A DNA stretch of 60,785 bases, filler included, from Collodictyon triciliatum (taxonomy: Eukaryota): NCBI GenBank assembly GCA_043381765.1. It is 4 parts of 4 records of this genome, joined end to end, with 100 filler letters (N's around TTAATTAATTAA, not from the genome) between each part and the next. Parts side by side here need not be neighbours in the genome. Positions count along the whole stretch, not along the records: positions 1 to 14,634 come from JBHJMP010001793.1; 3 more parts are not named here. One strand, given 5' to 3'. Within the stretch, counting starts at the first letter, position 1. The number at the start of each line of letters is the position of its first letter. The notes under the pieces are model-generated. The model had not been told where the DNA came from. It worked only from the letters and a program-made list of their open reading frames with translations, and did not search any database. This document shows, piece by piece, positions 4,923-14,565 of the stretch. The position numbers were made by a program, and so were the translations under genes.

Positions 4923-7900
4923 TCAACAGGAAAGCATGCACTTCTGCCTCTGTGATTTGCGGAGCAAGAACTACGCGTCTGATGGGAATGCTTTTGGCCA
5001 TACCTCGTCAGCAGCATCACCATTCTCCTCCTCATCCTCGGCTGTCTCAGGGAGCTTGGACGTTTGTGCATGGCCTTGGAGGCGGTTGTAGAAGGTGCGG
5101 ATTACAGAGTCGACATCGTCCAGTGTCTGGAGATGGATTGATTGACGTAAGTGTTTTCCTTTGGCTGCTGCTGCTGTTGTTGTTTGTTGTTGTTGTTCGC
5201 ATTATGGGAAATAGAGGGAGACAGAGAGCCACCGACTGTTCGGAGTGGACTTTGTCGAGAAGGAAGACAAGTATTCTTTCTCCATTCAAATGAGTGGATG
5301 TCTGGATGGGAAGGCTTGCCTGGTTTTTGATGTCTGCAAGAGTCTTGATTTCGGCGGTGACCTCCTTGATTTGGGCCTCGGTGAGCGGAATTCCTGCAAA
5401 TGGTCACGCAAGAATGTGAAACGGATGTGGTGATGATGATAATAATAATAATAATAATAATAATAATAATAATAATAATAATAATAATAATAATAATAAT
5501 AATAATAATAATAATAATAATAATAATAATAAAACAAGGGTTTTTGTTTCTCGGGTGCGAGCATCAGACACTCATTCGTCAAGATAATCATTCTGAACAA
5601 ACAGACAATTTCATTTCTAACGAAGCGGGAGAGGAAAAAAGTGCTTGAATAGAGAAGAAAAAAAACATAGAGAAAGAGGTGTCATTGAAACGAACCAAGT
5701 TGCTCGACGCGATACTTGACGGCATTCCATCCCGTCAGACGATGGCCGATGTGTACATACCTGTAATGATGGTATGGCAATTCAATATATATGAGAGATA
5801 TTGGGATAATAGTAATCCTGTGCGATATTTTCAAGCCGATAGCAGCGAATCTGCCTCACGAAATCGATCCCAAATGGGCTCTATCTCCTCTTAATAAAAA
5901 GTATTAGGAGAGGGGGAAAAGGCAGCCAACCGCGTGAGTCCAAAGTCCTCGGGCTTCAGTATCTCGTAAGTGGCGGGGTTGTTGAGGATGGCCTTGGCGT
6001 GAATTCCTGCCTTGTGCGTGAAGGCCGAGTATCCGGTGATGTAGTTGGAGAAGGGAATCTGGACATTGACGGTCTCCGCAACATAGTTTTCAATGTCGCG
6101 CAGCAGCTTGAGGTTGTACTTGGCCTTGACGCCCTCTGGGTTGTGCGCATACATGCGAGCAACAAGGCCGCCCTGGGTGGACAGAGAAGGTGGGGCGGCG
6201 ATGAGCGCACGTTGCAGACATGCCACATTAGTCCGCAGCGGCCGGAGTCGCGGTTGGGTTGTGAGGAGAGATGTGGATGTGGATGTGGATGCGCCAGTTC
6301 ACTTTGAATCGAATTAAGGAGGGGAAGGATGTGGATGTGCCAGTTACCAGTGTGGTGATTCCGTTTCTCTCGCCGATGCCCAGGACGCTGGTGTCGATGT
6401 GTGTTGCTCCGGCCTCCAAGGCAGCATATGCGTTTGCAATGGCACAGCCGGTGTCGTTGTGGCCGTGGAACTACGGGGCAAGAGGGAAGGAGGGCGTGAG
6501 GAAGAGGAAGAGGAAGAGGAAGAGGAAGAGGAAGAGGAAGAGGAAGAGGAAGAGGAAGAGGAAGAGGAAGAGGAAGAGGAAGAGGAAGAGGAAGAGAAAG
6601 AAGAGGACGAGGAAGAAACAAAAGGTATGTCTTCCACATTTGTGCAGGGGCGGGGTTGTGGGCCGCACCTCGATGTCGCAGCTGACCACGCCTCGCAGGG
6701 TCTTGACCAAGTCGTAGACTTGACGCGGACTGGCGACTCCGACAGTATCGGCCACGCCTACGCGATGCACGCCAATCTTGTCCACAGCCTTGTAGATGCT
6801 CAGCAGATCAACCAGGTCGCTGCGGAAGCTGTCTTCGCTGCTGAAGCGGACCTGCACCCAGTGGGAGGGGCAAAGCCGGGTTACATGACTTTGGGTTTTT
6901 TGGGTTTTTTGGGTTTTCGGTGGGTTTTTTGGGTTCTTTGGGTTTTTGGTGGGGTTTTTGGTGGGGTTTTTGGTGGGGTTTTTGGTGGGGTTTTTGGTGG
7001 GGTTTTTCTGAAGTTATCAAATACAAGGAAGGAAAGGAAACCTCAAGGCCCTTGCTTTTGATGTAGTTGATAACCTCCGTCGCGGTCTTGATGATGTATT
7101 CAATGTCCTTCCCATGCGAGAACTCACGAAGGACACTGCAGGAGAATGTGGTGAGTAGGTTGGCCGATATCTGTTTGGCTGCAAGATTGTCTTTCTGCCT
7201 CTTGTGTGGTTGTTACGCAGATGAAAATGAAGGAACTACAGAAAAGAAAAAGAAAAAGAAAAAGAAAAAAGGCTGCGTATGGTCACTGCGGATGCTTCTT
7301 TCGAGACCTGCTTGTGCCAAAGACAACGTCGATGCCATCCACACCAGTCTCGACGGCAATGCGCGCATCGTCCATGTGGCACCGCGTGTGCGTGAGGATC
7401 TTTGTTCTCTTCAGTCCCAGTTTGCATAGAGTTTCGCAGTCGCGGCGGCTTTGCTCAGAGGCCGCTGGTGAAGTCACTTCGATGTACTGTGCATTTCATA
7501 CATGGCATTTATGATTCGTTGAGTATTTCTCCTCTGCTTATTATGATTATAATTTAGGACCGTATAACTACTATGAGTTGCAGCAACTACAGTCTATGTG
7601 ACAATGACAATGACAATGACAATGACAATGACAATGACAATGACAATGACAATGACAATGACAATGACAATGACAATGACAATGACAATGACAATGACAA
7701 TTACAATGGCAATTACAATGGCAATTACAATGGCAATTACAATGGCAATTACAATGGCAATTACAATGGCAATTATATATCAATTGACAATGACAATTAT
7801 AAATACAATTACAATTACAACGAAAGAGCAGCGAGTGTTTTCGTTTGCTGTGTCGAAGGGAAGAAAACAAAACAAAAAGCATATATAAAAATATACAAGG

Positions 7901-11800: not shown

Positions 11801-14565
11801 GTGGAAAGGTCTTGACGAAGAAAAGAAAAGGGGTACTTTAGAGCCGCGGACTTCTCAAGAATTACACGTGTTAAGAGATATAAAAACAAGATACCAGGAG
11901 TAAAAGGTCCGTTCAGGTGGGGCTCCAAAGAACTTTTGGTGTTGCATAAAAATGAAAAAAAAATTGTCATTATTGTGATTGGAAAATGATACATATTCAA
12001 GTCGTTTGATTTTAACATGAGTAATTTAACAGATGATTTTTTGAACGAAAATAGCAAAACAACGGATACAAAATATACCTCAAATCAACTTCAACAATCT
12101 TGTCATATTTGCACCCTTCGTCAGCGGAGAGCAAGTCTACATTACTAATCCAGTTATTTGATTAGCGAAGCAAATACGATTACCATGTTGTATTTCTTCA
12201 TAAACGAACTTCAATTCATATATTAAACATATTGGATTTATTACAATAATAGTAAGAGAATTTTAAATAGAACAAAAAAAAAATTTAAAAAGGAGCTAAT
12301 TTGTACGCTTGTGCAAGAGAAGCCAGCTCTGGGCGATTCGTTGCTGTGAGGTAGCGAGCCATTGCAGGAGAAAACGGGAAAACAGATGTTGTTGCGCCCA
12401 CTTCAGCGCCCATGTTGCAAATTGTGGCCATTCCAGTGCACGAGAGAGTTTGCACACCTACATCAGATAAATGTAGGGTCACCACAAATGGTTATTACTA
12501 ACCATACTTTTCTCTTCTACAGAATTAAGGAATAAAATGTCCGAATAAGAAATGATTAAAGAATCATCACGGAACAAGTTCCCTCGATTCGGAAAGATAC
12601 CATAGTGATGAGTTTTTTTTTTGGAGATAAAGGAAACAGACCAGGGCCAAAATACTCGAGTATGAATCCCGTTCCTCCCTTGGTGGTTAATAAACCAGCA
12701 AGCTTCAGGATGACATCCTAGGTGTGAATATAATGAAAGCTACTTGCATGAGCGCAGATTTTACTTCATAATTGTATCGCATTACGGCACGTAGGCAGGC
12801 TGAATATGTATCTCTAGATCATGATTGTTTTTCGTTTATACTGATAATCGAAGTAGAGAAAAATTTGCTGATCAAGAATACGTTCATTTGCAATACCTTT
12901 GGCGAGGCCCATCCATTCAGATTCCCAGTAAGCTTGACGCCGATAATTTTTGGCCTCTGGGTGGTGTGAGTAATCAGGGGTCTTAATTCGGTCATCAACG
13001 CCAATAACAAAAACGATAATAAAACAACTAAAGAAGAGGAACAGTATACCTTTTTCCTTTGTAGGAATAAATGTTATAAGAAACGTAATTGAATGATAGA
13101 TTCCTTTATTTCGCTAGAATAAAAAATTAATAAATGAAAACCTTCAACTCCCATGGCATCCCTGCCATGACCTCCACAGCGTCTGCTCCACCTACTCCAA
13201 CAGCAATCTATTTTTTAAAAGATGACTGTGCATTAAAATCATGTGGAAATCTTGAGACATAATGCTCAAATTCGGTCTCATCTCATGAATATCGATAAAC
13301 ATGATGAGTATCCATTAGATAGGGCATTTCTTAATGGGGCATTAAGGTCTAACCATTCCCAGGCCACCAGCGTTTGGAGTATGAGAATCCGTTCCGATCA
13401 TCATTCCGCCAGGAAATGCATAATTCTCGAGAACAATTTGGTGGATAATACCACTAAATGAATACTGATTGAGAAACTAGGGATAGTGATTTCTACAATT
13501 TTGATTATTCTGCACCGTGATCCTAACAAACAAGCACATAAACTAGCAAGAGAAATGTAAACAACTCATCCGCTTGCATATTCCAAACAAAAGGTGGTAA
13601 AGACAAGATAGATAATGAACAGAAGAATAAACCTGCCAGGCTTCCAAAATCCGATGCCGTACTTTTCGCTTGCCGACGACAGAAAATCATACACTTCTTG
13701 ATTCACTTCTTTCGCTTTTTCAACGTCTTTGTAACCTATATTGCCACAAGGTATTTTCATCATATTTTGTTCGGCAATAGTAAACTCTCATTCCGGATCA
13801 AACCGCGGGAGTTGAATAACCCAGCAGGTGGGACATCCCTCATTTCTCTCGCAAAACACATACACATACCTCCGTAGTGAGCCTCTATCAAATGGTCGCA
13901 ATGCACCGTCGTTGGGGCAGCTGTGCGGTCCATCTTGGTCAGCATAAACTGGAGAATGGCTGTTTGAGCAGATGCGTCCTGCATGGCCAGCCGATCTAAA
14001 GCGAATAGGAGCTACCGTGAGAAGATCTTCCTACTTGCTTTGCAGAAGAGATAGCAAACCTGGCCTTAGATACAAGTATGATGTGTCCTTTGTCGGCAGT
14101 TCTTTGGCATTAAACAAGTGTCCATACACGATCTTTTCTGCGTAACTCAGTGCGCCAGGATTCTGTCGCTTGTATGCGGCGACATTTGAGCGCTAAGATT
14201 TTGTCATTCCTCATTAGTGGCTCAACATTATTATCATTATTGTATAATTTTGGAGTTTTGACCCACGCGCAAGGAATGACATGTAAACAAAACAGCAAAA
14301 AGGACTGATAATAAGTAATACACTAAACCACGCTACTATCGGCGACAAGAATAATGCCATCAATCAATATATGCACATAAGCAATACAGTTGACTGAAAA
14401 AGGATATGAGTGAATGAGTGCTTTTGAATGGGTTGAATAGCAAACCATGTTGTTGTATGAGAAGGGGTGGTGAGGTTCAAAGCGGCTGATAGGAGCCGAC
14501 GTGAGCGATCGCAGGCATACAGACCGGAGAATCCCGGTGCGTGGGAACGCTTTGAGCAAGCTCAT
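8834..14565 (-). CDS. ACO2: Mitochondrial aconitase-family protein, fungal Aco2/AcoB (homocitrate dehydratase) type; more than 20 exons
   Basis: Arg/Ser/Leu-rich presequence ([21 protein letters not shown]); motifs [75 protein letters not shown] and [11 protein letters not shown]. Confidence 0.93.
10763..10790 (+). mobile_element. 28-bp poly(A)-tailed micro-insertion with a 13-15 bp TSD, in an aconitase intron
   Basis: ATCTTTGAATCGAATAAAGG+A8 flanked by TTCCGATTGCACA at 10750-10762 and 10791-10803. Confidence 0.85.

Follow-up and report, generated by a model that had tools for sequence, protein, structure and literature searches.

Adjacent genes for homocitrate synthase and an Aco2-type aconitase, and a second pair of neighboring lysine-pathway genes, in Collodictyon triciliatum

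In the genome of C. triciliatum, a LYS20-like homocitrate synthase (HCS) and an Aco2-type mitochondrial aconitase (ACO2) are encoded by neighboring genes, and two further genes of lysine synthesis, LYS9 and LYS1, are neighbors on another contig. The first pair lies on contig G000:C1793, positions 1-14634 of the window (the whole stretch of 60,785 nucleotides that was analyzed). The reading that we favor, and hold to be probable, is that HCS and ACO2 carry out the first two steps of lysine synthesis by a complete saccharopine-type route and that their pairing has been kept by selection in a protist related to Diphylleia (CRuMs). HCS, probably cytosolic, would make homocitrate from acetyl-CoA and 2-oxoglutarate; ACO2, probably mitochondrial, would turn homocitrate into cis-homoaconitate, which Lys4 and Lys12 would then process. 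The ACO2-LYS20 and LYS9-LYS1 adjacencies would most likely be maintained because selection favors joint regulation or joint inheritance.

Both window genes are intact and lie on the minus strand of a single gap-free contig, the first run of N starting at 14635, and 773 bp separate the stop codon of ACO2 from the ATG of HCS (Table 1). The original prediction of a co-oriented pair about 0.8 kb apart, uninterrupted by an assembly gap, is thus borne out. Its span of 4923..14565 holds at the 14565 end; at the other, the HCS model stops at 4971, and an end at 4923 would need an extra terminal intron. Searches of the spacer for tRNA genes and against Rfam gave no match. The pair is flanked by the lumazine synthase gene RIB4 and a RING gene, both unrelated; RIB4 acts in riboflavin synthesis, a different pathway, and probably stands outside the pair.

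Table 1. Features of the ACO2/HCS region (positions in the window)
Feature	Position	Strand	Description
Lumazine synthase (RIB4)	3385..4033	-	PF00885; co-oriented, next downstream of HCS
Fungal-type homocitrate synthase (LYS20-like)	4971..8060	-	9 exons, 413 aa
ACO2/HCS spacer	8061..8833		773 bp without N; presumed HCS promoter and leader
Three short upstream ORFs before HCS	8091..8129	-	6, 9 and 4 codons; Lys codon in each
ACO2 3' UTR and poly(A) site	8816..8833	-	18 nt after stop; one contig, run X1
ACO2-type mitochondrial aconitase	8834..14565	-	22 exons, 775 aa, open frame
ACO2 exon 20	9440..9486	-	GEGSAREH at 658-665
ACO2 exon 18	9850..9967	-	KYKGHL; Lys599 aligns with pig Arg580; intron RNA-confirmed
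ACO2 exon 3	13870..13995	-	QDASAQ at 90-95; Ser93 aligns with pig Thr75

The introns of ACO2 are all GT-AG, and spliced alignment of the Diphylleia protein P0001 independently recovered the same 22 exons. The Pfam families Aconitase and Aconitase_C match on exons of the gene. All 11 of the catalytic and Fe-S motifs searched for are present in the protein. Its first 26 residues are presequence-like (four R or K, no D or E) and the N-terminus of HCS is not; the predicted compartments are the mitochondrion for ACO2 and the cytosol for HCS. A second ACO2 locus (C8091), with about 91% nucleotide identity and five internal differences in 366 aa, covers no flank and is read as a putative allele or haplotig.

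The motifs QDASAQ, KYKGHL and GEGSAREH, put forward as distinguishing the protein from Aco1, are all found, but QDASAQ does not serve as an Aco2-specific mark, since bacterial aconitases that keep the Arg also carry it: the metagenome loci matching it were mostly of this kind, and among the matches listed only 1 of 119 was of the K/A type. In GEGSAREH, pig Ser642 and Arg644 are retained and Ser643 is replaced by Ala662. The equivalence of Lys599 with pig Arg580 was drawn through an alignment with P0001 and 5ACN, and the offset suggests that the site is that of Arg604 in yeast Aco1 and Lys610 in Aco2. In yeast, a swap of the residue at the Arg580-equivalent site shifted aconitase specificity (PMC3556520). 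The window ACO2 may be directed toward homocitrate.

Aconitase trees of 40, 27, and 32 rows, all of them without S. cerevisiae Aco2p, group the window protein with fungal second aconitases (SH-aLRT 100 under both LG+G4 and C20 PMSF). In the careful run this K-type clade (window plus fungal sequences) has a support of 100/100. Without the 14 diagnostic columns its support is 99; at these, the window protein is K-like in 10 and its paralog on C277 is R-like in 13. A tree that unites the window protein with P0001 and C277 is rejected (AU test, p = 0.019). Within the clade, ACO2 branches outside the fungal K-type sequences sampled (fungal group 100/100). Because its branch is long (stem of 0.42 under LG+G4 and 1.02 under C20), attraction possibly contributes in part to this placement. 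The fungal K-type clade would correspond to Aco2p, judging from the residue and from the description in PMC3556520, and clade membership supports the assignment of the window protein to the Aco2 type.

The original prediction hung on the protein neither grouping with Aco1 nor being the only mitochondrial aconitase. It fell outside Aco1 in all trees run, and a separate canonical Aco1, with QDATAQ, KYRGHL, and GEGSSREH, is encoded on C277; the two share 61% identity and 1 of 21 intron positions. Both have orthologs in Diphylleia rotans (79% identity for ACO2, with P0001, and 88-95% for Aco1), which makes a CRuMs protist the probable host. Fungal contamination is rejected on the same ground, and the host is non-fungal, as had been supposed, the nearest proteins being those of D. 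rotans.

RNA contigs from runs X1 and X2, which behave as spliced RNA and come from one study, confirm all four ACO2 introns in the stretch compared and show expression and splicing of ACO2 in both runs. The genomic sequence past the poly(A) site is not A-rich. Fusion or read-through from ACO2 into HCS is not supported, given the stop codon and the poly(A) site at 8816 (one contig), and none of the RNA contigs listed bridges the spacer. The two genes thus probably have separate transcripts, on the basis of this one contig, with which a processed precursor is also compatible. The DNA runs X4 and X5 gave short pieces only, none bridging ACO2 and HCS. An RNA contig at 7923-8128, on HCS exon 1, was rejected as a mark of the transcription start (12 nt of intronic run-on and A-rich loose ends).

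An expressed protein may still be without a part in lysine synthesis. ACO2 might resemble Aspergillus AcoB in being inactive on homocitrate, or use another substrate, the lysine step being left to the Aco1 of C277 and the linkage being a relic. In two Aspergillus species AcoB is inactive although transcribed, its deletion has no phenotype, and Aco1-type enzymes carry out the step in vitro (PMC3556520); ACO2 has also evolved faster than its Aco1 paralog, judging from the identities to Diphylleia given above. Against this, the catalytic and Fe-S motifs are intact, the gene is expressed and has been retained in Diphylleia, and it adjoins the gene for the enzyme making its proposed substrate. We regard such a loss of role as improbable.

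Of the introns of HCS, seven are GT-AG and one is GC-AG (5319-5127). Profile matches by exon give an HMGL-like barrel and HCS_D2. TIGR02146 is the top NCBIfam model on the three exons tested, scored per exon with the whole-protein cut-off not applied, and the top PDB match is the S. pombe enzyme (3IVS) on three of four exons and Thermus HCS on the fourth. The alignments match two acidic residues, Asp123 and Glu222 of S. pombe HCS, which we take, in number and in role, to be its lysine site, the one that would matter for feedback inhibition by lysine. An ESM Atlas search with one HCS exon gave no usable match.

The homologs of LYS4, LYS12 and LYS2, whose location had been called for, were found on other contigs: Lys4 on C4715 (TIGR00139 the top model for all four pieces), Lys12 on C7865 (best PDB match 3TY3, with a WD40 gene downstream), and Lys2 split over C5802 and C6702, the former carrying a Lys1-like::Lys2 fusion. 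Lys9 and Lys1 are both on C442, and C880 has a PPTase-family gene, assigned to family level only. By sequence matches, the saccharopine-type alpha-aminoadipate set of HCS, Lys4, Lys12, Lys2, Lys9, Lys1, and PPTase is thus present. No end overlaps were found among the pathway contigs. An aspartate kinase-LysA-like gene on C2477 might be a second source of lysine. For the DAP pathway, the sole DHDPS-family gene (C79), for which dapA is best among NCBIfam models, was rejected as a DHDPS and read as HOGA-like, since GSNGE replaces GTTGE, a contrast that we take to separate the two. A further gene, on C11, resembles ornithine decarboxylase.

The last two steps fall to LYS9 and LYS1, which are neighbors in convergent orientation. 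Between their stops lie 214 bp free of N, and the pair is flanked by the unrelated genes Myb and SelO. The inference of consecutive-step clustering in a non-fungal eukaryote is therefore stronger than when first proposed, as this is a second consecutive-step pair. Adjacent non-homologous genes of one pathway, a trait of eukaryotic metabolic gene clusters, are found in both pairs. Assuming 10,000-20,000 genes, the chance of two adjacent pairs among eight loci is 4e-6 to 1.6e-5, and that of a second pair given the first about 0.003-0.005. As a control, 0 of 15 same-pathway pairs were on one contig, but this control is weak, as contigs are short and 2/28 versus 0/15 is not significant alone. The members of each pair may be co-regulated, with selection acting on their linkage.

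A true lysine-pathway Aco2 ortholog could also have come to lie beside HCS by a chance rearrangement, of no function, in a gene-dense genome. The pair was chosen for looking meaningful in a genome whose 10,000-20,000 genes hold many neighbors, and the unrelated RIB4 is about as close to HCS (937 bp). The 7-8-mers shared upstream of HCS, LYS9, and LYS1 are low-complexity words only, with no informative motif. Conserved synteny was not found in metagenomes either: a narrow pattern gave 0 loci, a broad one matched at least 120 stretches, and none of the 119 loci examined among the matches listed was next to a close HCS or to another gene of the pathway. What makes chance unlikely, to about the same degree as the loss of role above, is that the hypothesis was already in place when the LYS9-LYS1 pair came to light, with the probability just given, and that both pairs join consecutive steps. 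Among the matches listed, the lone K/A-type metagenome locus is 3.7 kb long, and two bacterial loci have 27-30% LeuA-like matches.

Alternatively, the pairs could be remnants of a larger cluster, ancestral or block-transferred from a fungus-like donor, that is now dispersing. Two pairs and the Lys1-like::Lys2 fusion would fit, HCS exons are very near S. pombe HCS, and LYS4, LYS12, and both LYS2 halves are on contigs of 3-6 kb, which show their neighbors only in part. Yet a recent donor among fungi is made less likely by the branching of ACO2 outside the K-type clade of fungi, the genes are intron-rich, the flanks are unrelated in both pairs, and a WD40 gene follows LYS12; we consider this reading very unlikely. 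A broader version, speculative and rather doubtful, is that CRuMs retain the whole pathway, Aco2 included, as conserved pairs and a fusion that are relics of a cluster which was regulated by lysine and predates the CRuMs/Amorphea split, with the HCS upstream ORFs perhaps sensing lysine. If so, the Aco1/Aco2 duplication would date from well before fungi.

Selection on a functional pairing remains our preferred reading, and it can be set against known systems. We take the ACO2 and HCS genes to be unlinked in budding yeast. For eukaryotic primary metabolism, the yeast GAL and DAL and the nitrate-assimilation clusters have separately transcribed consecutive-step genes side by side, as here; in contrast, this genome has pairs instead of one block, in amino-acid biosynthesis and in a phagotrophic protist, a combination for which the literature search found no precedent of paired consecutive steps. 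The pathway-level pairing of ACO2-LYS20 and LYS9-LYS1 thus appears to be new here. S. pombe HCS (3IVS; TIGR02146) and the window HCS both keep RxGE, HxH, and DTVG and lack a LeuA-type regulatory tail; the window HCS differs in having no N-terminal extension, nine exons, and three short upstream ORFs. A study presumably by Erives and Fassler bears on non-fungal hosts. In its available part (PMC4339202), the choanoflagellate Monosiga brevicollis has ACO2, LYS4, and LYS20, in an opisthokont and with no linkage reported; the window extends this set to a Diphylleia relative. One study places the Aco1/Aco2 duplication recently, within fungi (PMC3556520), and the duplication was later seen in a choanoflagellate (PMC4339202); a Diphylleia-type copy outside the fungal group implies a deeper duplication or an old transfer. 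That fungal Aco2 dehydrates homocitrate, as assumed at the outset, holds for S. cerevisiae Aco2p, a homocitrate dehydratase (Fazius et al. 2012, PMC3556520), but not for Aspergillus AcoB, which has the Arg-to-Lys change, is transcribed, and is inactive and dispensable (PMC3556520). With AcoB, the window ACO2 shares its subclade, this change and transcription, and it may be either active or, like AcoB, inactive. Like Aco2p, it is a second mitochondrial-type aconitase beside Aco1, with Lys for the substrate-binding Arg and with Lys4 and Lys12 co-occurring; unlike Aco2p, it is known from sequence, in a non-fungal host, adjoins HCS, and belongs to a lineage outside the sampled fungal K-type. With the role of Aco2-type proteins settled in budding yeast only and negative in Aspergillus, the gene neighborhood of a distant lineage is independent evidence, and the adjacency points to a role for Aco2 in lysine synthesis outside fungi.

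An aconitase of the Aco2 clade adjoins a homocitrate synthase (HCS) gene in a nonfungal genome with a full lysine pathway, and this association is real. Both genes are carried by contig C1793, with the first N run starting only at 14635, and 773 bp separate the aconitase stop from the HCS start, in agreement with the co-oriented, gap-free pair spaced by about 0.8 kb of the original prediction. The same aconitase exons are regained by spliced alignment of the nearest database protein. An HCS end at 4923, as first proposed, would require an additional terminal intron; the present model ends at 4971. 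A GC-AG intron, as found once in HCS, also occurs in the aconitase of contig C277. Pfam recognizes HMGL-like and HCS_D2 domains in the HCS exons, TIGR02146 is the top NCBIfam model in all three exons tested, and the top PDB match is the S. pombe HCS (3IVS) for three of four exons and the Thermus HCS for the remaining one. This is the sole HCS/LeuA-like locus found (the HMGL-like search also returned one other contig, C1124), and family searches of the genome revealed no LeuA, LeuB, or LeuC.

Coordinates of the lysine genes, control genes, and other features
Feature	Location	Strand	Description
Aconitase gene	window 14565-8834	minus	22 exons, all introns GT-AG, open 775-aa protein
HCS gene	window 8060-4971	minus	9 exons, 413 aa, downstream of aconitase
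GC-AG intron	window 5127-5319		only one in HCS
uORFs ahead of HCS	window 8091-8129		three, short, <70 nt from start, each with a Lys codon
LYS9/LYS1 pair	C442:26777-31300 (L051:5778-9901, L052)	plus/minus	convergent, stops 214 bp apart, no intervening N
Second Lys12 copy	C5393 (L047:179-2900)
Lys1-like/Lys2 gene	C5802 (L050:270-4561)
RIB4 family (lumazine synthase)	window 3385-4033
RIB5, RIB3, RIB1 families	C1458, C5730, C3767
Histidine pathway genes	C342, C3541, C1289, C5895
LRR receptor-like gene	window ~23000-30000	plus	large; Cys-rich region, multi-pass membrane part
372-bp repeat	window 30996-31366; C442 (L052:7687-8056)		92% identity, beside retroelement-like ORF pieces
tRNA-Ala(CGC) gene	window 33066-33138	minus	ARAGORN
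RING, coiled-coil, WD40 pieces	window ~35000-38950	minus	resembling COP1

Five contigs carry aconitase-family genes: C1793, C8091 (taken to be a haplotig or allele), C277, C4715 (Lys4 homoaconitase), and C885, of IRP/AcnA type judging by its motifs. The window enzyme is not the only mitochondrial aconitase, as C277 encodes a separate canonical Aco1 with QDATAQ, KYRGHL, and GEGSSREH. The two share 61% identity and one of 21 intron positions. The nearest relatives of both are from Diphylleia rotans (79% identity for the window enzyme with P0001, 88-95% for C277 with P0083); hence, the host is nonfungal, as predicted, and probably a diphylleid, a member of CRuMs.

The predicted motifs QDASAQ, KYKGHL, and GEGSAREH are all present in the window aconitase, where pig Arg580, Thr75, and Ser643 align with K599, S93, and A662. 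QDASAQ by itself is no Aco2 marker, as it is found in many bacterial mitochondrial-type aconitases (metagenome loci L064-L142) that retain Arg580 and Ser643. In Fazius et al. 2012 (PMC3556520), specificity is switched by Aco1p R604/Aco2p K610, a site that by offset would correspond to pig Arg580. Phylogeny, on rows hand-picked from about 320 fetched proteins lacking S. cerevisiae Aco2p, places the window enzyme in a single clade with all the other Lys-type sequences, those with Lys at this site (SH-aLRT 100 with 40 rows under LG+G4 and with 27 under C20 PMSF; 100/100 with 32 rows and careful search). Support is still 99 without the 14 diagnostic columns, of which the window sequence is Lys-type at 10 and C277 Arg-type at 13. 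The window and Diphylleia sequences branch outside the fungal group. A long stem branch tempers these tree results, as does the missing yeast Aco2p. An origin as a local duplicate of C277 is rejected by the AU test (p=0.019).

RNA contigs from two runs of a single study, X1 and X2, which have almost the same sequence, are spliced at all four aconitase introns in the covered stretch, and that of X1 has a poly(A) at 8816, 18 nt past the stop. No X1 or X2 contig spans the spacer, in which no tRNA or Rfam match was found, and the genes look separately transcribed. The Lys codons of the HCS uORFs may be due to chance, because the spacer has a high A content, with AAA or AAG found at 5.8% of its positions. 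The HCS N-terminus lacks presequence-like composition and the first 26 aconitase residues include four basic and no acidic ones, from which we infer a probably cytosolic HCS and a mitochondrial aconitase.

The clustering of consecutive steps extends beyond the original prediction, as LYS9 and LYS1 form a second such pair on C442, between a Myb and a SelO gene; N stretches occur within LYS9, further upstream than the interval between the stops. This stand-alone Lys9 best matches the fungal saccharopine reductase 1E5L, and Lys1 is canonical (yeast Lys1, E 1e-66). Lys12 is on C7865 (best PDB match 3TY3); a diverged homoisocitrate-dehydrogenase-like copy on C5393, with altered metal and substrate motifs, is possibly its noncatalytic partner. 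Lys2 is divided between C5802 and C6702 (L033). On C5802 its adenylation domain belongs to an in-frame fusion that is headed by a Lys1-like domain and also includes a condensation domain; the Lys1-like part has Arg at the position of the catalytic Lys77 of yeast Lys1, and its DNA resembles C442 LYS1 with 70% identity over 185 bp. A PPTase-family gene (C880) and a bifunctional AASS-like gene (C615) are also present.

If the genome is assumed to hold 10,000-20,000 genes, the probability that eight loci of the pathway form two neighboring pairs by chance is P = 4e-6 to 1.6e-5. The study started from the first pair, so the value to judge by is that of the second, P = 0.003-0.005. As a control, none of 15 same-pathway pairs (four riboflavin, four histidine, three aspartate-family loci) shares a contig, a weak comparison given 14,576 contigs, several loci near contig ends, and PF02774 and PF00977 matches identified to family only. 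LYS4, LYS12, and LYS2 may be further linked, since their contigs span only 3-6 kb; no overlap was found among the contig ends. Metagenome scans for linkage in relatives gave no usable locus.

We consider it fairly probable that homocitrate formed by HCS is dehydrated inside the mitochondrion by the Aco2-type enzyme, Lys4 and Lys12 take over, and Lys2, Lys9, and Lys1 complete the pathway, with entry and exit pairs kept together for shared control. Against this scheme, Aspergillus AcoB has the same Lys yet was inactive, Aco1-type enzymes can perform the step, and C2477 (L185) carries an aspartate kinase-LysA-like gene (best NCBIfam model, bifunctional aspartate kinase/diaminopimelate decarboxylase), a possible alternative lysine source whose product could salvage diaminopimelate from bacterial prey.

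The literature searched, with most subscription papers outside it and absence thus unproven, held nothing relevant on the pathway in Diphylleia/CRuMs or on gene clustering. Novelty resides in host lineage and gene arrangement, the enzymes being of known kinds; in yeast, ACO2 and LYS20 are reportedly unlinked. Choanoflagellates are reported to have ACO2, LYS4, and LYS20 (PMC4339202), and alpha-aminoadipate reductase is cited as common to fungi and Corallochytrium (PMC8779187).
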